A stretch of 64,000 nucleotides of DNA from Octopus sinensis. Taxonomy: Eukaryota. The notes beneath the pieces are model-generated. The model made no database searches, was not told the DNA's origin, and saw only the letters and a program-made list of their open reading frames with translations. Of the stretch, positions 9,607-61,265 are shown piece after piece; positions within the stretch are counted from its first letter, which is position 1, and every line of letters starts with the position of its first letter. The stretch covers positions 63,736,001 to 63,800,000 of the forward strand of contig NC_042998.1 in the NCBI RefSeq assembly GCF_006345805.1, written 5' to 3'. The translations under genes were made by a program, and so were the position numbers.

Positions 9607-11045
9607 ACTTAGATAAACTTAGATATGTTTCGACCAAAGATTGGTCCAGGCCATGTCTAACTTAATAGCACCACCTGATAGGATTATTTGAATCCTGTTT
9701 AAGTCAAATTTTGATTATGGTCCATTCAAGTAGTGAGTTTTTGTTGGGTGAGTTGTATCCAATTATGGGTGGCTTATTTGGTATTCCTTGAAGGAATCTA
9801 TCCAGACTCCGTTTAAAGTTGATGGGATCCTTTTCCTCTTTGATATCTTTCGGGACAATGTTAAATAGAGCAGAGCCTGTTGAGGAAAAGAAATTATGTT
9901 GCAGTGTACATGTATGCTGTGATCTTGAATTGGGCAGGGGACGTATGGCCCGTGGTTCCAGTCTTGGATGAACCTTGAAGCTAATGTTCAGGTCGTTTGG
10001 GCAAAGTTGGCGGTACATTCTCCACAACGTACAAATGATGTACCGCTCACGGCGACGCTGGAGGGAGTAGAGTTTCAAGGCTTTAAGGCGATCCCAATAA
10101 TCGAGAGCAGCCACGCCTTCAATTCGTTTAGTGAGTGCCCTCTGGGGGTGATTCAATCCTCGAGATGTTTTGACTTGTATGGTGAGACCACAGTGGGCAG
10201 CAGTTTTCGAGGTGTGGACGTACAAAGGAGGCGAAAAGTGGTATGATGGCACCTTGTTCTTTGGACCGGAAAGTTCTTAAGATCCAGGAACTCATCCTAC
10301 GAGCTATATCGACCTTCTTGTTGATGTGTGCACTCCAACTGAGATCGTCATCAACAATTACACCCAGGTCTCTGATATTGTTAGAGGCTGTGAGCGGTTC
10401 CCCTGAAGGAAGAGAGTATGGCTGTTTTAGTGAGGAATTTCTTCCAAAATGCATCAGCTCAAATTTTCCCTCGTTCAGTTGCATTTTGTTTCTGTCTGCC
10501 CATTGACTCACAGCATATAGATCAGACTGGAGTTGTGTTCGGTCTGCTTCTTCATTGACGATTTGCTGGAGCTTAGTGTCATCAGCAAATATTTTCACTT
10601 TGCAGTAATGTACGACACTGGAAATGTCGTTTATGTAAATTATGAAGAGTAGCGGACCAAGAGAGTCCCCAGGGGGACACCGCTGGTGACTTTTGCTGGG
10701 CTTGAGTGGAATCCATCAACTACAACATGCTATTCGCCAGGAAATACTTAAACCAGTGTAGAAGTTTTCCACGGATTCCAGCATTTGCCAATTTTGAGAG
10801 TAGGATATTATGTTCTACCATGTCGAATGCTTTACTGGAGTCAAGATATATGACATCAGAGTTCGAATCTATTCCCAAGGCTTTGGGTACATCTTCAATG
10901 TGGTGTAAGAGCTGTGTTAGACAGTCCCTGCCACAGCGAAAGCCATGCTGATTTGCATTTAGAAGTTTGTGGGTCTTCAGGAAGTCAGCTATCCTTGATC
11001 GTAACACTCTTTCAAACAGTTTAATGATGTGGGAGGTGAGTGAGA
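9607..11045 (-). mobile_element. CR1-group LINE, RT and 3' end, frameshifted
   Basis: ISLTSHIIKLFE, NQHGFR, YLDSSKAFD, KIFADDTKL, RDLGVIVD, YSLQRRRERY; short tandem tail (ATCTAAGTTT); (TA)n on both sides. Confidence 0.92.
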
Positions 11046-11086
11046 TATATATATATTTTTATACATATATATGTACATGTATATAT

Positions 11087-11690
11087 ATAAAACAGGACAC
11101 GACTCGTCAACTAGTCCTTCATTGCGAGAGAATTAAAATAAAATTGCCTCGCATAGGGGAAAAAACAGACAAGAAAAACATGTGACAAAATCAGGACGTA
11201 AAAACGATACAAATACAAAATAAAAAGCCTTTTCATTTTGTTTTTCTCGTTTGTTTTCTTGTCTTTTGATTTCTCGTATTGTATTTTCTTTTTATTTCTC
11301 GTTTTGTATTTTCTTGTACGTGTATCTTTATCTTGTATTTTATTTTGCATTTGTATCGTTTTTACGTCCTGTTTTTGTCGCATGTTTTTCTTGTCTGTTT
11401 TTGCCCCTATGCGAGGCAATTTTATTTTAATTCTCTCGCAATGAAGGACTAGTTGACGAGTCGTGTCCTGTTTTATCCTTCGAAACACGCTTGAGTTAGC
11501 TAGAGACAGCTGATGAACTGGGGATTTTTCCTGTGTGGTTTCTCCTGTACCTTGTTTTTCTGTTGTAAAAAATAATGTTTTTCCCGTTTCCGTTTCGTCT
11601 GTTTTTTGTTGTAAAAATATGGCTTGTCCGATTTCGTTTTTCGTTGAGTTCTACGTCTAGTTGCAGTGTCCTGTACTCACGTATATATAA
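11087..11690 (+). mobile_element. PLE pLTR-like element with 5' inverted duplication
   Basis: 11087-11225 is the reverse complement of ~11338-11475; TA-rich flanks; CTGATGA and GAAAC remnants. Confidence 0.6.
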
Positions 11691-11975: not shown

Positions 11976-11978
<3 letters not shown>

Positions 11979-13285
11979 CTGGGTCTTAAAACAGCTACTA
12001 AATGGCTCAAATGCGGATGTTACATATCTCGAATTTGCAAAAGCCTTTGATAAAGTCGACCATGGTATGATCTGTCACAAACTACGTGGTCTCGGCATAG
12101 GCGGAAAACTTGGAGAGTGGCTGCACGACTTTCTAAAAGACAGAAGACAGGCAGTTGTGAGCAATGGAGCCACTTCCAAGGAAACACAAATAACAAGCGG
12201 TGTTCCACAGGGCACTGTCTTGGGGCCACTGATGTTCATAGTGGCCCTTTTAGACATGCCTTCAGTAGCTACGATGGCCACCCTTGCTAGCTATGCAGAT
12301 GACACAAAAGTCTCCCACACAATACAAAACCCTGAACATATTGCACATCTGCAACAGGAGTTGGATAAAATATACAGGTGGGCGGAGGGCAACAACATGC
12401 AGTTTAATGCAGGTAAGTTCCAGGCCCTGCGCTACCGGCACACAAAAGTAAACGACGTGCAGACTGGATACACTGGCCCAGGAAGAATTGCAATCCCTGA
12501 GTTAAAATCAGTGCGTGACCTAGGCATTGACATGTGCAATGATGCATCTTTCCAAGTGCATATTACTAATCTGGTGATAAAATGCAGACGGCTAGCTGGA
12601 TGGATTCTCCGAACTTTCAGAACAAGAGAGAAGGAGGCACTGATGGTCCTCTGGAAAACATTCGTCCTCAGCCGCTTGGACTACTGCTCCCAACTATGGT
12701 CACCACACAATATAAAACTAACAGCAGAACTCGAAGCAATTCAGAAAAGCTACACAAAGAAGATCGTCTCAATGCAAAATATCAGCTACTGGGAAAGACT
12801 GAAAGTATTAAACCTCTTCTCCCTAGAGCGAAGGCGGGAGAGATATGTGGTGATATACATCTGGAAAATCCTGGAGGGTCTTGTCCCAAACTTTGGCATT
12901 CAAATTTACCCCAACCACAGAACGGGGCGCCACTGCATGGTGCCAAAGATTCAAACATCAGCATCAAAATACAGGACCAGATACTGCAACAGCTTGGGTT
13001 TCAGAGAACCACAGCTCTTTAACATCCTCCCTAAATGCCTGAGAGACTTGCATGGTGTGGATGTGGGTTTCTTTAAAACTAAACTGTATCTCTTCTTGTC
13101 GGGAGTCCCAGATGAACATATCTTACGACAGGAGACGCAGATGCGGGCAGCAGCATCGAACTCCCTTGTTGATCAAGTGTCACGTATCAGAGGTGGATTC
13201 ACATATTAGTGTAGCTCATTCAGCGGTGGTGCCCCAGCATGGCCGCGGCCTTCGGGCTAAAACATTTTTAAGGATTTAAGGATTT
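11976..13285 (+). mobile_element. CR1-group LINE, 5'-truncated, open RT frame to the stop at 13209
   Basis: YLEFAKAFDKVDH, SGVPQGTVLGP, SYADDTK, RDLGI, FSLERRRERY; tail ggtgccccagcatggccgc..(TTTAAGGA)2. Confidence 0.95.
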
Positions 13286-14219
13286 ATATATATACACAGA
13301 AGTGCAGAAATTGTGTTAAAATTTACTACAGTTGTCTCTGTAGAATTTTATCAACAAACTAGTAATTTTGAATTTCAATTTCTGTTCTTTTTATGCCTAC
13401 GCCAAACATGGAACTAACTCTCAGTTGGATTTATGGTGTATATTGCATTTGATAAATACATACATACATACATACATACATACATACATACCTGTTGTAA
13501 ACTCCCAACACATAATAACTCATTATTGTTTCATCTCGCCGTGAGCGCAAATTAATCTTACCTAATTAGCCTTGGCGTCGTATATTTATATACGTCTTAG
13601 AGAGTAATATGTGCAAAAGCATCACGTTATATATATATTTTTCCAGTTTTCCAGTTTGTGTCTATATACGTGTCAAATATTCTCACTCATTTATATGCTA
13701 CGATACTGTTTTAACCATTCATAAAATTGAGATCGTTGTATAATACATAAACATAGACAATTATGTTTATTTACATTATTCCTCAGTTACGGCTACTCAC
13801 ATTTTAAAGAGGAGCCATTACTTGACAAGCACAGTGATGCTGATTGGATGTGGGAGCGTTCCTATCCATTTCAAGCTAAGCATTTTCTTGTAAATTGATA
13901 TTATATGCACTTACAAATCAGTACCGTAAGCTGTAAGGGTCACTTTCAATGTGAGTGTGTTAGATAGGTAGCTAGAAAACAATCGCACATCTTGTAGTCA
14001 CATGTATTCTTATTATGTTATTGGTTGTTTCAAAGCATATTCTTTGCATCGTTATTTAGATAATGATTTCCCAAATATTCAACTGTGTCAAGCATCTAGT
14101 GCAACAACTACTTACGATATTTGAGTCAATGTCTCACCTTATAACTCAGCAATGTTTTAAGTGTTTATATACTTCAAATATCTATTTATCTGCACATGTA
14201 TATGTATATACGTATATAT

Positions 14220-17262: not shown

Positions 17263-17740
17263 AGAGTTGGAACTAATATTGCCAGGCATTCTGCCTCATG
17301 TTTAAACAATTGTATCAGATATAGTTTATCTGCTCAAATTATATCTGGTTATTTGTTGCCTTCTTCAGATGCAATATTGTGCACCATTTAAATGTTTGTG
17401 TGTATGTGTGTACGTACAAATTTTAATACCTCGTAGTATTTTTCAAATACAATACTATGATGCAATTGTGAAACATTTAATGTTTCCTTAACACAACGTT
17501 GCTAAAAGTGAATGGTAGAAAAACCAACAACGTTGACTATTTTGCAATGGAAGCTTATTTAATCCCATATGTATATTTGTCAATATTAGGGTTGACATAG
17601 TAAACATGCAATACATGTAATTCATATTTCTGGGAGTGAAAATATTTCCACATAAAGCCTCCATTGAATTTAATATAGTATTTGAAAAATGCCACCGATA
17701 TCTATAATATAGGAATTAAATGTACAATAGTACCTAAGTA

Positions 17741-18438
17741 TATAATGGTTGTATACTGTCAATCTAACAAGAACGTGGCAGTAGGGGGTACACCACCGTT
17801 ATATAGCCCTAGGAGGCATCGAACTCCTCCTGACAGCTTCGACACATTTTATCCTGTGTCCTTATATACACATACGAAGGGGAGACAAACACCCCCAACT
17901 GCCGGAACTGCATCTAGGGACACCGTGTTTCAGGATCATTGTCCTTCATCGGCCTAGAGTAGCAGACACCGGTCAGCTGGCGATGTCTGTCTCGACTTCG
18001 TATCTGTATATATCTATAGTCAGTGAAGTCTATTCACTGATTATCAAAATAAGAAATATTGAGTTTCTAAATCTCTCGTAGAGAGGTGTACGGTGGTGGA
18101 GCGATATAATGGTTGTATACTGTCAATCTAACAAGAACGTGACAGTAGGGGGTACACCACCGTTATATAGCCCTAGGAGGCATCGAACGCCTGAAACATA
18201 GTGTCCCTAGATGCAGTTCCGGCAGTTGGGGGTGTTTGTCTCCCCTTCGTATGTGTATATAAGGACACAGGATAAAATGTGTCGAAGCTGTCAGGAGGCG
18301 TTCGATGCCTCCTAGGGCTATATAACGGTGGTGTACCCCCTACTGTCACGTTCTTGTTAGATTGACAGTATACAACCATTATATCGCTCCACCACCGTAC
18401 ACCTCTCTACGAGAGATTTAGAAACTCAATATTTATAA
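17741..18438. mobile_element. Hammerhead-bearing non-coding retroelement (364 bp unit, partial tandem plus inversion, 10-bp TSD)
   Basis: Direct repeat at 17740/18104; inverted arms 18054-18192 and 18296-18434; TSD tacctaagta at 17731-17740 and 18439-18448. Confidence 0.85.
17913..17958 (-). ncRNA. Type I hammerhead ribozyme motif (U4C variant)
   Basis: Minus strand: tctagg-CCGATGA-agga-caatga-tcct-GAAA-cac-g-gtg-TC-cctaga; stems I, II and III all pair. Confidence 0.8.
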
Positions 18439-23499: not shown

Positions 23500-24709
23500 A
23501 TTGGGTTGGCAACTAAGATACGTTTTTTTTTTTATATTTTGGAATTTATTGCGTTTTAAAATTTTGTAATCTATTTTTGGGGAGAATTCTATTTTTGAAT
23601 CCTTTTGGAATCCATTTTTTTGTTTAATTTTAGATCATTAAAATGGAATGTCAAGTTAAGAAAAACAAGCATTTTCGACACCTTCGTTTTGCTTTTAATC
23701 AAGGTTCTCACGCTGCAATATGTGTGCTGTACATGGAGAGGGTGCCATCGCTGAAAGAACTGCTCGTGATTGGTATGCCAAGTTCAAAAATGAAAATTTT
23801 GATCTCAAAGACGCACCTCGTTCTGGCTGTCCAGCTGAGTTCGATGCATAGCGATTAAACCAACTTCAACTTTTGCACGAAAATTCTCGTCAAACGCCAA
23901 GGGAACTGGCAGAATAAATGGAATGCTTCCACACTGCTATAGAAAAGGTCCAGAAAAATGGAGCACGGGTTCCGCATGCTTTAAGTAACAACAACAAAAG
24001 TCAACGAACCACAGTCTTCGCTGGTTTGCTTGCTCGTCACCGCTCAACTCACGGGCACAAGTAACGATTTCTTTCCCGAATAGTTACTGGCGATGAAAAA
24101 TGGTGCCTGTACATCAATATGAAGCAGCGTAAGGAATGGCTCAGCCTCGGTAAACAAGATTTTCATCCACGTAAAACGATGTTGTGCATAGGCGGGACTG
24201 GGAAGGGATTATCCATTACGAATTGCATGAACGGAACCAAATGGTCAACGCGGAACTCTAAGTTCAACAGCTGGAAGGACTCAACACGGCTATTCAAGAG
24301 AAATGACCTAATCGTCAGCATGGAGTTCTTCTGCTGCACGACAACGCTCGCCCTTATATCGCCAATATGACAAAGGAAGCCATTCAAATGCATGGCTGGG
24401 AAGTGCTGCAACACCTGCCGTACTCTCCTGATTTGGCGCCAATGGATTTCCACCTCTTTCGATCTCTTTCAAATGTTTGCGCGGTGTTTCGTTCAATACT
24501 AATGCAGAATTGAGAGTTTCCTTGGATCAATTTTCCGAGTCGAAACCGGGTGATTTCTACCATCGAGATAGAAAATCTTGTTGAACGTTAGGAAGAAGTT
24601 GATAACAACAAGGGTAAATACATTATTGATTAATTAGTTGTTATTCTTTATTATACATTTAAAAAAATGTATATTAAAAAAAGCGGCGGGAACTTAGTTG
24701 TCAACCCTA
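23500..24709 (+). mobile_element. Mariner (DD34D) DNA transposon, inactivated
   Basis: TIRs ttgggttggcaactaag and cttagttgtcaaccct; RVPHAL (WVPHEL), IVTGDEKW, LLHDNARP, PYSPDLAPMDFHLF; multiple frameshifts. Confidence 0.93.
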
Positions 24710-30477: not shown

Positions 30478-30504
30478 CGTTGAATATGTTTAACCCTAGT
30501 TTGG

Positions 30505-30583
30505 ACCTTCCTGAAGAAGATCAAACATTGTGAGTTCCCCATGACTTGCTAAAAGAAGATCAGAAACCAATTTGTTCCAGGGT
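30505..30583 (+). ncRNA. Type I hammerhead motif, copy 1 (mutated)
   Basis: accttc-CTGAAGA-agatc..gatca-GAAA-ccaatttgt-TC-cagggt. Confidence 0.65.
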
Positions 30584-31013
30584 ACTAGATGGTAAATGTT
30601 TTTTATTTCCCAATTTATTCCTGTCGAATTTTATCCGTTATTTTTGTGGTTTACAGAACCTAGCTGTTCTTTCTAATGTGTTGAATTTCACGTAAAGTGG
30701 ATTCCTTATGTGAATAAATATGCACTATATCGTATGACTAATATATAATCTTCTTGACTAATTGTTTTTGCACGTTAGACCTCTGGAAATGTAAATTTTG
30801 ATTAAATATTTTAATTTTAATTAAATTCCATTTCCCTTTGATATGATTAAATATTGTAAGTTTTTGGATAATTCTCGGTTAAAGTTGGCGGTTTTTATTG
30901 TAGCCAGCGATTGGACTGCGATTGCGCAGAAAAAATTTGAAAAGTTAGTTCGTATGAACACGAGACAAGTAGCCTTGTTTGTCTCCTGTTAAATATGTTT
31001 AACCCTAGGTTGA

Positions 31014-31089
31014 ACCTTGCTGAAGATCAGACCTTGTGAGTTCCCCCTGACTTGCTAAAAGAGGATCTGAAACCAATTTGGTCCAGGGT
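31014..31089 (+). ncRNA. Type I hammerhead motif, copy 2
   Basis: accttg-CTGAAGA-tcaga..gatct-GAAA-cca-att-tgg-TC-cagggt; stems I and III intact, GUC site at 31081-31083. Confidence 0.72.
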
Positions 31090-31351
31090 ACTAGATGGTA
31101 AATGTTTTTCATTTCCAAATTTATTCCTGTCGAATTTTATCCGTTATTTTTGTGGTTTACAGAACCTAGCTGTTCTTTCTAATGTGTTGAATTTCACGTA
31201 AAGTGGATTCCTTATGTGAATAAATATGCACTATATCGTATGACTAATATATAGTCTTCTTGACTAATTTTTTTTGCACGTTAGACCACTGGAAATGTAA
31301 ATTTTGATTAAATATTTTAATTTTAATTATATGCCATTTCTCTTTGATATG

Positions 31352-31399
<48 letters not shown>

Positions 31400-36257: not shown

Positions 36258-36300
36258 CGATTAAATAATTAAATTTAGAAAAATTAGACGAAAAGTTTTT

Positions 36301-37091
36301 TCTATAGTCTCTAACGCAAACACCAGAGACACACGACTACAAGAACTAAAAGATACCCTAATCACCAGGAACTATCCACCTTCACTTATTGACAAGTGCA
36401 TTCAACGTGCCCTTCAACTTAACATCAAGGAACTGAGACATCCCAAATCAAAGAAAAACTTACAACCAAAAGCCTTACCATACATCTCCATACACAACCC
36501 TCTCAATAACGAAGCCTTCGACACCATCCTCCACAACATACCCCTCCTAAAAAAAGACCACAGAATGAACACATCCTCCAAACACACACGATCATAAAAA
36601 GCAAAAGACAGCCTAGATCCATGAAAAGTCTCCTTACACAAGCCCGAATTCACTCCTCAACACAGAAGCCGACAGTAAAAAAATGTGGAAGACCCAATTG
36701 CGGGATATGCGACTATCTAATTGAGGGATCAGAGTTCTCCTTCAAGCAGGGACAACGGTTTACAGTGAAAAGCAACTTCACATATGCTTCGGAGAACCTA
36801 ATATACTCACTAACCTGCTCCGGGTGTCAAGAGCAGTACATAGGCCAAACAAAAAATGGTTTGCGTAAACGAATGGCCCTGCACAGATCCCAGATAAAAA
36901 TTCCCCAAAACAGAAAAATAGCTTTTAGCCAACACATAGATACTTGCGCCAACAAAAAAACACCAAACTTCAGAATTTTCCCCCTCTACCAATTTAGGGA
37001 CGATACAACCTCGAGACAACGAATAAGTAAAGAAAATCTCTTTATTACAAAATACAAGCCACTTCTAAACGGGTCTACGACAAACAATTAA
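36301..37091 (+). pseudogene. PLE RT C-terminal region plus Cys finger plus GIY-YIG endonuclease (one frameshift near 36580)
   Basis: RLQELKDTLITRNYPPSLI, KCGRPNCGIC, NLIYSLTCSGCQEQYIGQT..RMALH, KE..I..LLN. Confidence 0.92.
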
Positions 37092-43473: not shown

Positions 43474-44225
43474 GCATGCATACGTGCGCGCTCACATATA
43501 TACGACAAGCTTCTTTAAATTTCTATCTACACGTCTACTCACAAAGCTTTGGTCGGTCGGGGGTGTCACGTAGTGAGACTGAACCCAGAACCATGCAGTT
43601 GGCAAACAAGGAAGCCTCTTACCACAATGCTACATCTACGCCTATTGTTTGTGAATTTACATGAATTTAGTTAGATATTTCTTTGAATGTCAATCTTTCA
43701 AAGTCGCAGTGTTACAAGCTTATCCTTTATCTTGTAACAAATTCGAAAGTCGTAAAAGCCAAAATACGGCTAACGTCCTTAAAGTGGGGACAACGTGTAT
43801 CACCGCTGGTATGAAGTGAAAATATTTGAGGCCTTTATCTTGTTTATTCCTTGTTCACTTACTTTAGCCATTCAACTTCGACCATGCTGGAGCAGTGTTT
43901 GGGAACTTTTTTAGTTGAATGGATCGCCCCCTGTACGTATTTTTCTAAAGCTTGATCATTACTCTATTCATCACTTTTGCACAACCACTTTGTTACAGGA
44001 ACATAAACACACCAACACCGGTTGTCAAGTGATGATGGGTGACAAACACAGAAACACGCACGCACACATATACACACGCACTCACACATTTATAGGACGG
44101 GTTTATTTAGTTTTCGTCTACGCAATCCATTCAAGGGCTTTGGTTGGCCCGAGGCTATACTAGAAGACAGTTGCACAAGGTGCCACCCAATGGGCCTGAG
44201 CCTGAACCATGTCATTGGGAAGCCA
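43170..44225 (-). mobile_element. Two degenerate family A SINEs (~43170-43640 and ~43840-44225)
   Basis: gaccatgctggagca, caccggttgtcaagtgatg, ggctttggttggcccgaggctatactagaagac. Confidence 0.65.
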
Positions 44226-44636
44226 CGTGACTATAAAGCGAATATTTTACTAGTAAATGCACTTAACGAAGCATTTTAAAATCACAGACTTCAAACAATC
44301 TTTTGTGTATGTGTGTGTGTGGTATTTTTAACTCACCATTGATGCACTATTTATGTAGGCAAACAATTAAATATTAGAGGATTGCTGTTTGTAACAGAGC
44401 AGTGTGTGGGGATTGGTGTGCTGTCGTATTCTGACCTTGTTTATTAATCTTATAACAATCAGAACATGCTAAATTATGATCGAATTTTAGGAGTGGAATA
44501 TGAAAGTTTGAAAGTAGTTTCATAATAGATCCAGTAGTTTTATGATTTCAGGAGATATTTTTCTTATTAAAGATATTTTTCACCTAATAGTGCTGTGAAT
44601 GGGTTATTGAACAAATGTGCTTACCACGTAATGCTT

Positions 44637-45275
44637 TCTTCTTCTTCTTCTTCTTCTTCTTCTTCTTCTTCTTCTTCTTCTTTTTCTTCTTCTTCTTCTT
44701 CTTCTTCTTCTTTCTTCTTCTTCTTCTTTCTTCTTCTCTCCTTCTTCTTCTTCTTCTCCTTCTTTTTCTTCTTTCTTCTTCTTTTTTTTTCTTCTTCTTC
44801 TTCTTCTTTTCTTCTTTTTCTTCTTTTTCTATTCTTCCCCTCTTTTTCTTCTTTCTTTTCTTTTTCTTCTTCTTCTTTCTTTTCCTTTTCTTCTTTTTCT
44901 TCTTCTTCTTCTTCTTCTTCTCTTCTTCTTTTTCTTCTTCTTTTTTTTTTTCTTCCTCTTCTTCTTCTTCTTCTTCTCTTTCTTTCCTTCTTCTTCTTTT
45001 TCTTCCTTTCTCCTTCTTCTTCTTCTTCTTCTTCCTCTTCTCCTTTTTCTTCTAGTTCTTCATCATCACCATCATCATCTTCTTCTTCTTCTTCTTCTCC
45101 TTCTTCTTCTTCTTCTTCTTCTTTCTTCTTCTTCTTCTTTCTTCTTCTTCTTCTTTTTCTTCTAGTTCTTCATCATCCATCATCATCATCATCATCATCT
45201 TCTTCTTCTTCTTCTTCTTCTTCACCTTCTTCTTCTTCATCTTCTTCCTCTTCTTCTTCTTATCCTTCTTCTTCT
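44637..45275. repeat. ~640 bp (CTT)n-rich polypyrimidine tract with CAT inserts
   Basis: Direct reading. Confidence 0.95.
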
Positions 45276-45414
45276 ACTTCTGTGTTTCCTCGGGTGTAAG
45301 CAAGTAAGCAATAGGTGCTGCAGTTTAGAATATTTTATCCATGAAATGATTCCAAACAAAAGTTTAAATGCAATACTGGCGTACGTTGCAGAAAAGATAT
45401 TCAGCAAACAGAGG

Positions 45415-45915: not shown

Positions 45916-46273
45916 AAACAAATAAAAGAAAACGAAGGAAGTATGGCTGCCAATGGTGGCGTTGCAATTAAATGTGTTCCGTATGTGGAATCAGTGGCGA
46001 ACTGGATCTAAACATATCGGTTGCCAGGAGAGTAAGGTGTCCACCCTCAACTGAAAGGGTGCCCAGTCACAACTAATATACTATCATTTAATTGTTTTTT
46101 TTGTTAAAAATAATATGAGATAATGTGTATGATATAATATTATATAGTATGATATATATAAATATAAATATAATATATATATATTAATATATGTATATAT
46201 ATATATACGTATATATATATATATATATATTATATATTTAATATATTATATATATATATATATGGGGGGGGGG

Positions 46274-46392
46274 GGTTACGGCCATATTAGGTTGAAAGCA
46301 ACGGTTCTCGTCCGATCACCGAAGTTAATCAACATCGAGCCTTGTTAGTACTTAGATGGGTGACGTCTTAGGACACTTAGGTGCTGTATGCA
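46274..46392 (+). pseudogene. Full-length (119 nt) diverged 5S rRNA copy
   Basis: ttacggccata..ggttctcgtccgatcaccgaagttaa..gttagtacttagatgggtgac..ggtgctgta; solitary, with substitutions relative to the metazoan consensus. Confidence 0.9.
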
Positions 46393-47612
46393 TTAAAAAA
46401 AATTAACGGCGAGGCTCCATCATGGCCGTTATCACATGACTGAAACAAATAAAAGAATAAATATAATATATATATACATAAGCACTCATGTGTATATATA
46501 TATGATTATGCACGTATATGCGCATGTGTGAGTGTGCGTATTCGGCTCTCCGTGTATCTAAAATAGCCCGTGTATATGTATATAAATATTTGTAGAGAAG
46601 GGAACGAACTTTTGAGCAATTCACTTGCTTGTAAATGAGGTAATGTATGTAACGATTTTTAATATTTTTAATGCAACATCTTTCAATGCTTACCACCTAA
46701 TATATTTTATATAATAACCCAGCATATTCCTCAAGCAGCGTACATTAACATATATGGATACGAAAAGTATTACCTTCAAGTTCGTTCAAATTTTCGATTT
46801 CTAACACAAAAGTGGAATAGAAATAACGATTTCATATGACCTTTTGTGATTAAGAGTAGTCATGTTGTTGACGCTTAATGGATTCTATGAATGGAATGAA
46901 TATTTCGAATCCGTTGAAGTATTCAGACACGGATATCAAAAATAAAATGTATTGGCATTTCGAATTAAATTATCAAATGTTAGTTTGTTGTTGCCACAAT
47001 TCTAAAACAGGAAAATAATGAATTTAAAACCCTCCACGAATTGATTATTTCGTTAATACTAATGTTCATGCAAATCCTAACTTCCACTTGGTAAAATTCT
47101 GCCAATCATACAAATTATTGCACTGTTTAGTATTCAGGGTTTGAAGAATATATCAATGACATCAATCAGAATTAAGTATACCTTAAGAAACAAGCAGCAT
47201 ATATACCCATATTTGCAAATGCATTTTGAGAACTTTGCCGATATTTACTAAGACTGTATTACAAACCTTCTAGAACATGACATGTTTCATGTTTAGAGAT
47301 ATCTGGTTGAAATCTATATTGAAATCCTTTGTTGATAAAGCGGATTCTACCAGTTTTAAATGTGTTCATCTTTTACTACTTACAATCATTTCAAGAAATG
47401 CTAGTCTGTAGCACAGCTTTGAGGAGTTGTTGTCGAACAGACCTACTACAGTATTGTGTTTTTAAAGTCCAGTACTTATTCTGCAGACTTTTCTCAATGC
47501 ACTGTTAGGTGGAAGAGACGTAGACAAATCAACGTCGGCAGCCAAACGGTGGAGGTACGAAAAATACTTAGGTACAGTGACATACACACACATGTGCGGT
47601 GCATATATATAT

Positions 47613-48373: not shown

Positions 48374-48473
48374 NNNNNNNNNNNNNNNNNNNNNNNNNNN
48401 NNNNNNNNNNNNNNNNNNNNNNNNNNNNNNNNNNNNNNNNNNNNNNNNNNNNNNNNNNNNNNNNNNNNNNNNN
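48374..48473. other. Assembly gap (100 N)
   Basis: Direct reading. Confidence 1.
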
Positions 48474-48537: not shown

Positions 48538-49179
48538 TTTTCTAATATAAGATTAATATATACAAATGCCCTAATGTATTTATCTTAAGTATATAACTAT
48601 ATTGATAAATGAATAAAAGTTATACATTATTTTAGTTTATCTTCAATAATTATAATCATTTAAATTAAATTTAATAATATACAAATAACTTTATAGTAGA
48701 CCCTATAGTAATTAAAAAACATTTCTATTGTCTTATGCATTTCTGGTTCTTCTCTTGTTTTCGAAAATATGAATGCATAAAATTATATGTATATTGATTT
48801 ACAGCAGTATATTTTCCTCTGGAAAACTAAGTAGAATTTTGTTATTTATTTATTTATTACTTTTTATGTAATTATTAGTATAAATAAGAGATTAATACGT
48901 ACATAAACAATGACTATAACATTAACGCATATTATAACAATTCTTAATCATAATTATATATGTTTAAAATACATTTTAAACATATATAATTATACGAATA
49001 TTCATCGTAGACCCTATGATACTTAGTCAATTGCTATTGTAAAATTAAATATCTCCTGTTCTTCTAGTCTTTCGAAAGTATGAATCCATAAAAAATTATA
49101 AACATACAGATACGCAGTACGTTATGTTCCGCAGAAAACTAACTGACATTTTGATCATTTATTTGTTTATTTATATTTG

Positions 49180-49753
49180 TATTTTTTAGTTTCAGCTCAG
49201 AGATGTGGCCATGCTGGGGCACCGCCGTATTGCTACACAGATATTACTGAGAGATTCTTCTAATATGTGGCATTTAGAGAATAATGGAGTTTGATGTCAC
49301 TACCCTCATTTGCACCTCTTGCCGAGAGGTAGGTTGATCTGGGACTCTCAACAGGAAGAGGTCCAATTTCGCTTTGAAAACATATACATCCACTTTGTGT
49401 AGGTCTCTCAGGCTCTTTGGGAAAACCCAGGCTGTTGCAGTAACAAGCCCTGAACCGCGATGGCATTGCTGGCATATTTGGCACTGAGCAGTGTTGACCC
49501 GTTCTGGCATTGGTGTAGCTTTCAATGCCAAAATTTGGCAGAATTTCTTCCAGGATCTTCCAGATGTATTTTTCTGCACCCCTCCCCCCTGCCTTCGCTC
49601 CAAGTAGTAGAGTCTTAGCTGTTTCAGCCTTTCCCAGTAGCCGCGCTGTTGCAATGAGACTATCATCGTGTGAGGTTCGCTGTATTGCTTCAGGGTCCGC
49701 TGTTAATTTTACACTTTTGGGTGACCATAGCTGGGAGTAGTATTCCAAACGTC
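49180..49753 (-). mobile_element. CR1-group LINE 3' fragment
   Basis: EYYSQLWSP, YWERLKQL..LERR, IWKILE..PNFGI; tail ggcggtgccccagcatggcc; possible TSD ttgtttatttat. Confidence 0.85.
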
Positions 49754-50744
49754 TTGTTTATTTATTTTATGTACAAATGACTAATCGTAATTTGTATACA
49801 ATTGTTTAATATTGGTGTATTTAGATTTTCAAAAAACTTTTTAATATTTAAATATTTCAAAGTTGCATTTTTTATTGACTTCAGTAAATTTCTATTTTAG
49901 TATAGAGATATACTTGCATAGCAAGTGACCTGATCTGAGCTAGTGTGCTGAAACAAAAACAACCGCATCGTGTAAGTTGTTTATAAGCCATTTCAAAACA
50001 CACAAGAACTGTTAGATTCACTTCAACTTTTAAATTTAATTTGCCAAAATATTTTCCTCGCTTTGAGACCGTAACCTGTTCACTCAAAGAGACGGAAATA
50101 TTTTCGCAAATTAAATTTAAATGTTGAAGTGAATCTAATGCTTTTTGTCTCTTTTTAAATGGTTTACAAACACCTTCCACGCTGCAATTGTGTTTATTAT
50201 AATATAATTATGTTATTATGATAATGTGTATTTACGGTTTTTAATTTTGAGAATGTTATTTTCTTAAATAAACGACGTAATTTTTAATTTTGATTGAATT
50301 TTAGTAATGGATGTGATTTAAAATATTATTTAGTATAGGCCAAGTGAGGATAAAGTATTTGAATAAATTTTTCTCTACTCTTTAGCCATGACAAATCGAA
50401 GGTTGTTTTTGTTTTACAGTACTAGTGAGAATAAAATTTCTTTTTAATAAATTGTCTGAATAACATGTATTTTTCCTTATAGTATGAAAGAATAAAAGGA
50501 GATATTTCCTATTTCGAAATAAATTCTTAGCATATTGTTATTATCAGATTTAAACTAATGCTCAGAAATATATTTATTCACAAAAGCACACAAACATATT
50601 TATGACTATTATTCTATTTTGTTTTTTTTTCTTTTCCCACCTTTAACCATCCAAAGCGGAGTATAGGCCACGTATGATTTAATTCCATGTCGCATAAGTT
50701 TTCGCTTCTGTATTTATACTCTGCGATGAATGTGCCCCTGTACT

Positions 50745-51250
<506 letters not shown>

Positions 51251-51965: not shown

Positions 51966-52600
51966 TGGATTCATGATGGTCCTCTGGCGGACATTCATCC
52001 TCAGTCGCCTGGATTACTGCTCACAGCTATGGTCATCCACCAGTGTAAAATTAACAGCAGACCTTGAAGCAATCTAGAGAAGATTCACAAAGAAGATCGT
52101 CTCTTTGCAACAGCTCAGCTACTGGAAAAGGTTGAAACAGCTAAAACTCTTCTCCCTGGAGAGAAGACGGGAGAGATATGCAGTAATATATGTCTGGAAG
52201 ATCCTGGAAGGAATTGTGCCAAATTTTGGCATTGTAAGCTACACCAATGCTAGAACGGGACGACACTGCATAGTGCCAAAGATCCCAGCAATACCATCAC
52301 GCTTCAGGACCAGCTTCTGCAACAGCCTGGGTTTCAAGGGCCCACAGCTTTTTAATATTCTCCCAAAGAGTCTGAGGAACGTGCACAAAGTAGATGTAGC
52401 GGTTTTTAAATCAAGCTGGACATCTTCCTGTCAAGAGTCCCAGATGAACCTACCTCACGGCAAGAGGTGCAATGAGAGTAGCTGTATCAAACTCCATTCT
52501 CACCAAGTGCCATATATTAGACGAGGTTCGACGCAATAACAGTGTAGCACAAAACGGCGGTGCATCAGCATGGCCGCAGCTCTGAGCTGAAACTAGAAAA

Positions 52601-52633: not shown

Positions 52634-54192
52634 TATCACTTTGATCACTTTGACCGACCAGTCTGTCAGGCGTCCATTTGACACCGCTGGTAACAGCACG
52701 CTGTCCACTCCTCTCTGGATCGCGCCTTTCTCATCCACGTGATCCCCATCGTCCTCTTGAAATCATAACTCCACCGTCGTGGAGGTCTTCCGGGTGGTCT
52801 TTTCCGCTCACGCGGGTTCCACTCGACAACTGCGTGCGTCCACTGATTATCGGTGAGTCGGGCGACGTGTCCAGCCCATCTATACCTGCTGCGTGTATAC
52901 TCTGCGATGACATCTCTCACGCCGGACTTCTTTCTGATGATCTTGCTACTGATGTGCTCTCTCAACGAGATACCAAGCATTGACCTTTCCATGGCTCTTT
53001 GAGCCGTTACCAGTCTTTGCTCTTCTCTCTTTGTGGTAGCCCATGTTTCACTACCATATAACATTGCAGGCAGAACTGCCCTGTTAATGAGGCTGGCGCG
53101 GGTGGTCCTGTCCAACCTTCCCTTGAGCACATCCCTTATGCCATTGAATGCCTCCCATCCGGCCCTTACTCTCCGTGAGATCTCCTTTTTGATACCCCGG
53201 CACATATTTACTTCCTGCCCCAGGTAGACATATTATCTCACCTCCTCTATTTCATCACTGCCGATCACCATTCGACCTGTTGTTACATTGTCTGACCGCA
53301 TGAACTATATTTTCATGCGGTTCATCTTGAGACCTACTGCAGAACTTTTGATGTCGAGTTCCGTCAGCATGGTCTGAAGCTGATCCATGTTTTCAGCAAT
53401 GAGTACGATGTCGTCAGCGAAACGGAGGTGAGTGAGGAGCTCGCCATTGATGTTGACACCTTGCCATTCGATGCTTCTGATGATCTGTTCGAGACATGCA
53501 GTGAAAAGTTTTGGGGAGATTTATCTCCTTGCTTCACTCCCTTCTCGACCAGCACTCGTATGGGTGATGACAGTAGAGCTATGTCGGTGGTGTATCCGGA
53601 ATTTGCCTCGCTGAGCAGCTGCATATATTACGCTTCGATTCCTTGCCTCTGCAGCGAGTTCAGAACTGCGTTGGTTTCGACGCTATCGAAGGCCTCATTT
53701 GCTCGCTCAAGCAGTTGTGTTAGAGTAAATATATGGTCCATTGTGCTGTAGTTCTTCCGGAAGCCTGCTTGTTCCCTCGGTTGTTGTTCGTCGAGACGAC
53801 GTGACAACCTGTTCAGAATTATCTTCGTGAACAGCTTGTACACGTGAGACAGCAGGCATATGGGTCCGTAGTTCTTTAGATCTTCTCTGTCGCGCTTCTT
53901 ATACAGCAGGATGGTATTTGACTCTTTCCACTGCGAGGGAATTCTTCCCTCGTCTAGATAGTGCGTAAGTCGCTCAGCGAGGATTTTCCAGAGCTGCTCT
54001 CTGCCTGACTTTAGCACCTCCGATGTTATACCGTCTTTCCCTGGAGCCTTTCCGTTTTTCATCGAGCCGATGACTCTTTCAACCTCACTGGTAAGTATAG
54101 GTGGCACGCTTTCTTCCTGTTGGAGTGGTGGTAACGGCTGGACATTTATGGTAGACTTAAAGAGCTTGGTGTAGAAGTCTTCACAAACTTTT

Positions 54193-54197
<5 letters not shown>
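52634..54197 (-). mobile_element. RTE-clade LINE, RT domain and 3' end, frameshifted
   Basis: GKAPGKDGI, PICLLSHVYKLF, EQAGFR, GVKQGD, LRFADDIV, YGSETW, WAGHVAR, RPPGRPPRRW; tail (TCAAAGTGA)2; TA flanks. Confidence 0.93.
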
Positions 54198-54234
<37 letters not shown>

Positions 54235-54715
54235 TAATGATATTCTCTGATTTGAAGTGACAATTTTTTAAATATAAACAAATGACTGAAAGATGGCCAG
54301 CTCACCTCAATCGAACTTACAAATCGATGCTTAAATGGCCCGTTGCGAATCTGAATGGCGAAAGGCTCATCCATCAATTTCAGTTAAATTTAGTTAATAT
54401 ATACTTAAACGGTCTTACTACTACATAAATAAGATTTTTATGAACAAACCCGAAAGGCTTTGCAAGTTACACAGGGAAAGCTACTAAGGGGGATTCATAG
54501 TATAATAACTGTGTAATATATATAATAACGTTTATTCCCCGATTTGAAGCGACGATGTTTAAATATAATCATTTTGGAGAATAAATATCATTATGATATA
54601 TATTATACCGTTATTATACAGTTAATACACTATGAATTTTCCATAGTTGCTTTCTCTCCGTAACCTGCAAATCTTGCAAAGGGTCCCTTTATAAAAAATA
54701 TTAGTTATATGTATG

Positions 54716-56302: not shown

Positions 56303-56367
56303 CATATATATACTTGCATCCATCGATCCACACACACACACACACACACCATTATATATATATATAT

Positions 56368-56675
56368 CTTTTACTTCTTTTAGTCATTTGAAAGCGGTCT
56401 TGCTGTAGCACCACATTAGTCGAACAAATCGATCATAGGAATTATTCGAAGCCTGGTTCTTATTCTATCGGTCTCTATTGCCGAAGTAATAAGTTACGGG
56501 GAGGTAAACACATCAACATCAGTTGTCAAGCGATGGTGGGGTGACAAACACTGACACACAAATGCATAGACACAAATACATACACACAAACACGCACAAA
56601 CACACACACACACATATATATTTATATATATATACGTCGGGCTTCTTTCAGTTTCCGTCTAACAAATCCACTCAC
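56368..56675 (-). mobile_element. SINE family A, 5'-truncated
   Basis: gtcgaacaaatcgat, ctattctatcggtctc, gttgtcaagcgatggtgggg, gggcttctttcagtttccgtct. Confidence 0.78.
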
Positions 56676-56885
56676 ATCAAATATCGTAAAAATTGTTTGT
56701 AACTATTGGAACTGAATCATAGTATAAAATTAGGAAAATTTTAGTTCTTTACAAAATAGACAAATATATATATAAAATTATGTATGTACGTATATATGTA
56801 TGTATTTCTCGAGCGTTAAATTACTACACGTTTTTTTTTTGTTTACACACCCGTCTTCGTCTTTTGTTTTTGTAAATTCTCATTA

Positions 56886-60800: not shown

Positions 60801-60819
60801 TATTTTTTAGGGTGTATCC

Positions 60820-61000
60820 ATTTACTTGTTTCAGTGATTTGACTGCGGTCATGCTGGAGCTCCGCCTTTAGTTAAGCAAATCACCCCTGGGACTTATTCT
60901 GTCGGTCTCTTTCCCGAACTTCCAAATTACGGGGAAGTAAAAACACCAGCATCGGCTGTCAAGCGATGTTGTGGGGGACAAACACACATACACACACACA

Positions 61001-61037
<37 letters not shown>

Positions 61038-61082
61038 ATATATTATGTTTCAGCCCAGAGCTGCGGCCATGCTGATGCACCG

Positions 61083-61170
<88 letters not shown>

Positions 61171-61265
61171 ACGACGGGCTTCTATCAGTTTCCGTTTACC
61201 AAGGCTTAGTTCGGCCCAAGGATATAGTAGAAGACACCTGTCCACGATGCCACGGAATGGGACTC
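60820..61265 (-). mobile_element. SINE family A carrying an extra LINE-tail insert in its TA tract
   Basis: Tail at 60823-60866; insert at 61046-61087; 5' part at 61170-61265. Confidence 0.8.

Follow-up and report, generated by a model that had tools for sequence, protein, structure and literature searches.

A decayed full-length 5S rRNA copy joined to a SINE 3' tail in octopus DNA: a candidate single chimeric retrocopy

In a 64 kb stretch of octopus DNA (hereafter the window), we found a unit of 188 bases (46274-46461, + strand) composed of a full-length, decayed copy of 5S rRNA (46274-46392), a short linker (46393-46407), and the 3' tail of an abundant SINE (46408-46457). We regard it as reasonably probable that this unit is a single chimeric retrocopy, formed as the reverse transcriptase of a LINE copied first the 3' end of a SINE RNA and next a whole 5S RNA; it was likely inserted in one event and never spread. 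A template-switch chimera was among the candidates named in the preliminary description of this DNA, and it fits the full-length small RNA, the shared strand, the 5'-truncated retroposon tail, and the lack of a target duplication around the tail alone. The further suggestion made there, that the unit represents a nascent 5S-SINE, is not supported by the data presented below, as the copy is decayed and a second copy of the junction was not seen among the contigs listed.

The 5S portion matches the Rfam model RF00001 over its entire length (model positions 1-120 of 120; 74.0 bits against a gathering threshold of 38; E 8.6e-14), in agreement with the earlier reading of a full 5S copy followed by a linker and a tail. 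This is the sole Rfam match within the window, so that the copy does not belong to a 5S array within this stretch. Its state is that of a decayed copy, being non-standard at 6 of the 34 base pairs of the model. At three positions, +56, +70, and +92, the copy differs from the bulk 5S letter, which accounts for 85-100% of contig depth in each of four public runs, and the bulk letters at +70 and +92 would re-make base pairs of the copy. By the Xenopus numbering, these positions presumably fall one in each region of the Pol III promoter, i.e., box A, the intermediate element, and box C. The inspection of the Pol III boxes proposed in the preliminary description thus finds a non-bulk letter in every promoter region, suggesting that the promoter is no longer intact, and we infer a loss of function from these substitutions. 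As a Pol III template, the present-day copy is predicted to perform poorly, and the unit as a whole is old rather than young and has probably lost its activity. Free folding of the 5S copy is no better than that of shuffled sequences (z 0.47), a measure that is uninformative by itself. At the 5' junction, the last two letters of a run of 12 G (46264-46275) are +1 and +2 of the 5S copy, and the G at +2 disrupts a pair of helix I. At two other positions, 46312 (+39) and 46334 (+61), an alternative letter makes up 2-87% and 13-66% of the depth across runs, respectively, and these variable shares hint at more than one 5S type in the animal.

The tail was assigned by alignments tested against shuffled sequences. 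The segment 46401-46461 aligns without gaps to the SINE copy at 60873 (- strand), with 46 of 61 positions identical and a score of 69.5 (best of 500 shuffles, 47). It also aligns ungapped to the SINE copies at 50787 and 56409, where none of 500 shuffles reached either score. Over the 50-base tail, 38, 36, and 35 positions are identical to the three SINE copies, which themselves share 36-43 positions with one another; relative to the majority of the three, 10 of the 48 resolved positions of the tail are different. The LINE tails of the window match more loosely, two of them with gaps (44/61 and 40/55, reached by 0 of 500 shuffles each) and the third at 35/58 (1 of 500), an order of likeness that the preliminary description, in which these LINEs carry a putative CR1-group label, had recognized. 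Because the SINE match is ungapped and the LINE 3' ends are looser, two of them gapped, we consider a SINE to be the tail donor. The tail of the unit is closer to that of the SINE than to those of the LINEs, and the SINE tail is itself related to the LINE tails. Three LINE-type tails are predicted to fold as two hairpins; both hairpins are damaged in the unit tail, and neither forms in its predicted fold. Private changes of the tail create a perfect 7-bp stem in a shifted register (46404-46431), and a stem of at least 7 bp arose in 77 of 3000 runs of random substitution; the stem could reflect either fold-back correction or a distinct subfamily.

Homology to the SINE tail begins 2-9 bases from the 3' end of the 5S copy and on the same strand. 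The intervening linker consists of TT (46393-46394), A8 (46395-46402), and TTAAC (46403-46407). Its A-run aligns with an A-run in the SINE copy at 43879 (-), so that the SINE part may start directly after TT, and it also resembles the SINE sequence found upstream of tail pieces in public contigs. From these resemblances, the linker is probably A-rich sequence that belongs to the SINE itself and precedes its tail hairpin, and the A8 need not be the poly-A tail of a 5S copy. Since the linker has no run of four T, it contains no Pol III stop, and because the first such run lies at 46610, a fresh copy could have been read through the tail.

The window is animal DNA rich in repeats, and it provides both a donor and a candidate partner for such a unit. 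A near-complete copy of the donor SINE, which we take to be tRNA-derived, is present at 50748-51241 (-), and other copies are found at 60815-61264, 56353-56676, and 43860-44223 (all -). ARAGORN identified no tRNA gene in the 64 kb window, and the tRNA ancestry of the SINE therefore relies on published work on octopus SINEs. A related tail is present on three LINE fragments that are reverse transcriptase-bearing or reverse transcriptase-like, i.e., the unit shares its 3' end with a candidate partner LINE. The first is a 5'-truncated element at 11977-13290 (+) with a reverse transcriptase frame (Pfam RVT_1), a two-hairpin tail, and TA repeats on both sides; among named proteins, its reverse transcriptase is nearest to one from Argonauta hians (61% identical), which makes an octopod host likely, followed by a crab protein annotated as a jockey-type reverse transcriptase (44%). 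The second (51974-52600, +) is followed by TA repeats, and the third lies at 49157-49754 (-). In addition, a LINE tail alone, about 40 bases long with both hairpins intact, has been inserted into the TA core of a SINE copy (61045-61085, -), showing that 5' truncation can be this extreme, with TA remaining on either side. Tails are frequent in the window, numbering about 10, and AT-rich DNA is the target of some.

Several other repeats were observed in the window. Further broken remnants of reverse transcriptases are located at 52666-54383 (-) and 9704-11058 (-), with RVT_1 E values of 2e-5 and 5.7e-9, respectively. Broken frames at 36265-37091 (+) contain a cysteine cluster and a YIG-like motif and presumably represent a putative Penelope-like endonuclease, and a frame remnant with a GDEKW motif (24065-24468) is what we take to be a putative mariner-type transposase. 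Two near-perfect long inverted-repeat pairs, at 11087-11476 (139 bp at 97%) and 17740-18384 (195 bp at 98%), look like young miniature DNA transposons. A direct duplication of 376 bases (94%) is found at 30479-30854 and 30988-31360, a TTC-rich array of 645 bases at 44636-45281, and an assembly gap of 100 N at 48374-48473, 1.9 kb downstream of the unit.

In the mechanism that we propose, a LINE enzyme of the tail-sharing family would nick a TA-rich target, start reverse transcription on the SINE RNA, and copy about 60-70 bases. It would then move to the 3' end of 5S rRNA, either by a template switch or because the RNAs had already been ligated, and read the 5S rRNA to its 5' end. The TT that follows the 5S copy would be the U end of the 5S transcript, and the inserted copy would subsequently have decayed. 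The likely target site is the TA-rich tract on the 5' side (46128-46263, Tandem Repeats Finder), and AT-rich sequence lies downstream of the unit, so that its placement among TA-rich repeats in the preliminary description holds. No clean target duplication was found around the whole unit, where we saw just TA repeats and a displaced, marginally significant AT-only 20-mer. The 20-mer follows the tail (46457-46476), and its identical twin (46164-46183) sits 80 bases 5' of the unit; a match of this kind was obtained in 10-55 of 2000 shuffles and in 1 of 37 other TA arrays. It is a weak candidate, no stronger than a hint, for a displaced duplication around the whole unit.

The arrangement of the two parts argues for one insertion event rather than two. 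A history of two events, in which a 5S retropseudogene was already present when a 5'-truncated SINE inserted at its 3' end or was joined there by recombination, is consistent with the dispersed, decayed 5S copies without this tail that are present in the public runs and with the density of tails in the window, some of them targeting AT-rich DNA, and the A8 could in that case be the poly-A tail of the 5S copy. We nevertheless consider it unlikely, as the A-run aligns with SINE sequence, the two parts lie on the same strand, and the joint lies only a few bases from where the 5S copy ends. The preliminary description had envisaged a truncated SINE, marked by its own target duplication, inserted into the A-tail of a 5S pseudogene; the best duplication that we found around the tail alone is 4 bp. 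Moreover, there are no TA repeats between the 5S copy and the tail, whereas TA lies on both sides of the LINE at 11977-13290 and of the tail-only insertion (61045-61085). This argument from TA is not strict, since TA repeats follow just 4 of the 10 other tail copies viewed. Formation of the unit in a single event is thus favored by these absences, by the full-length 5S copy on the same strand with the tail starting 2-9 bases beyond it, and by the tail-only truncation known from the window, together with the contig search described below. It is weakened by the lack of a clean duplication around the whole unit, by the 7-bp stem, which could mark a distinct subfamily, and by the human 5S/L1 chimeras, which are described in the source as mostly antisense and truncated (PMC11838501).

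If the unit belonged to a mobile family, further copies of its junction would be expected elsewhere, as the preliminary description had proposed to check. We aligned contigs of four runs (X1-X4), from 12 listed public runs, at 80% likeness. Among the 32 longest contig pieces listed (16,631 further pieces lie outside the listing), 27 are 5S-like, with 15-23 differences, and some of these represent the same locus in different runs. None of the 27 passes 46394 into the tail: eight extend to the end of the 5S and continue for 77 or more letters without aligning to the tail, 14 are too short at this side to be informative, and five break off before the 5S is complete. Likewise, no 5S-to-tail joint is present among the listed contig joints of the four runs, and where loose ends precede tail pieces, those with the best support consist of SINE body rather than 5S. 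Contigs with the bulk letter at +92 (33-56 per run) include none that aligns past 46395, a reach that was inferred from a table column and fits the piece listing. These contigs make a weak family test, because the listed pieces, which are the longest of a filtered set, do not include the 5S junction of the locus itself, a gap of no evidential weight, and because repeats interrupt the contigs; copies too old for the 80% cut-off or joined through another linker could also escape. A dip in contig depth at 46386-46405 (1162, 1746, 4124, and 192) between high 5S and tail plateaus was not counted as evidence, since the summed depth of contigs does not measure copy number and an overhang of 1-5 bases beyond the 5S suffices to produce it. 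A scan of a metagenome collection, in which the presence of this animal's DNA is not established, for a motif of the 5S end plus tail returned 120 loci in 29 of 64 collection parts, which we rejected as chance matches (0 of 120 with a BLAST match to 5S; GC 43-74%).

These results bear on the possibility that the unit is an old copy of a real 5S-headed SINE (SINE3-type) family, with a 5S promoter and a tail recognized by a partner LINE, transcribed through a missing terminator. The design would be workable, as it comprises a whole internal promoter, TT alone after the 5S copy, a first four-T run only at 46610, and a tail of the stringent type; the 7-bp stem might be a family trait, and the 14 5S-like pieces among the 27 longest listed that end too early leave room for it. 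In addition, four SINE/5S families (9.83 Mb) are reported in an Octopus vulgaris annotation, with no description (PMC13282606). Against this stand the absence of any listed piece crossing the junction, the eight pieces that have room and lack the tail, and the absence of a listed 5S-to-tail joint. The published SINE/5S is also a pipeline class, of which seven recent insertions total 42,242 bp, far longer than the unit (PMC13282606). We found no description of an octopod 5S SINE in the literature, although Repbase, Dfam, subscription journals, and the Zenodo library of PMC13282606 may contain one. Overall, an old copy of such a family is quite unlikely, and equally so in its specific form, a body-less SINE3 of the octopods' own that combines a whole 5S with the tail of the dominant SINE and is mobilized by the tail-sharing LINE. 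If the family were real, 5S-headed SINEs would extend to molluscs, beyond vertebrates and insects, a swap from a tRNA to a 5S head would have been caught, and the undescribed SINE/5S class of the Octopus vulgaris annotation could be accounted for.

Parts of 46262-46640 are contained in nine of the 12 listed runs (best share 0.47), and in X1-X4 the shares seen (0.47, 0.47, 0.47, and 0.22) compare with 0.47, 0.50, 0.47, and 0.18 expected from the downstream flank alone. None of the listed runs that contain such parts is an RNA run, an absence that carries no information about expression. It is improbable that the joint reflects misassembly or a private allele at a TA/G-run site that is difficult to assemble: the joint borders the TA tract of 135 bases and the 12-G run, and the junction itself is in no listed contig piece of the four runs, but the tail end and downstream flank are matched without difference by contigs of X2 (46436-46865), X1 (46447-46865), and X3 (46448-46772), substitutions account for most of the differences between either part and its bulk version, and the junction lies outside simple repeats.

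The single chimeric retrocopy that we favor has counterparts among small-RNA chimeric retrocopies of the U6/L1 type, in which small RNAs are fused to the 3' ends of L1, Alu, or mRNA sequences and which were reportedly described by Buzdin in 2002/2003. In these chimeras, a full-length small RNA lies in sense orientation 5' of a truncated 3' end, and they are unique events without spreading (PMC11838501); small-RNA chimeras with Alu fragments, such as U6/Alu, have also been reported (PMC4494074). The octopus unit is alike in having a full-length small RNA at its 5' side, followed in the same direction by a 5'-truncated retroposon 3' end, and is likely also a single insertion that does not propagate itself. 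It differs in its likely octopod host, in a driver that would be a tail-recognizing LINE rather than L1, in a 3' part that is a SINE tail, and in the lack of a clean target duplication. Among the 253 chimeras catalogued in human, 5S/L1 chimeras make up 10.5% and are mostly antisense and truncated (PMC11838501), whereas the octopus unit is sense and full length. Compared with plain 5S rRNA retropseudogenes (PMC3531059), it is similarly a dispersed, decayed copy of a cellular RNA outside the rDNA array, but carries a SINE tail of 50-60 bases.

A further comparison is with SINE3 elements. These 5S-headed SINEs, which include zebrafish SINE3, AmnSINE1, OS-SINE1, Ped-1, HaSE3, and SINE3-1_TC (PMC7245038, PMC3747384, PMC4824008), are reported from vertebrates and some insects (PMC7245038), and those of vertebrates rely on CR1-clade LINEs (PMC7245038, PMC3747384, PMC4824008). 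SINEBase asks for a 5S head with an identity of 60% or more across 60 nt or more and for at least 100 copies that share the same modules (PMC3531059). The octopus unit has a 5S head that matches the full Rfam model at 74 bits and a LINE-related tail; at 188 bases it is shorter than 1 kb, and with one 5S match in 64 kb it is interspersed and not tandem. It lacks a central body, its promoter carries private changes at +56, +70, and +92 where a SINE3 would have an intact internal Pol III promoter, and one copy was seen. If it is a one-off, it represents a small addition to the known chimeric retrocopies. It suggests that a tail-recognizing cephalopod LINE can make sense, full-length small-RNA chimeras, as mammalian L1 does. 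5S-headed DeuSINEs are proposed to have originated through an initial switch between templates, from SINE RNA to 5S rRNA (PMC7245038, PMC3747384, PMC4824008), and chimeras such as this one are considered the starting material of 5S-headed SINEs.
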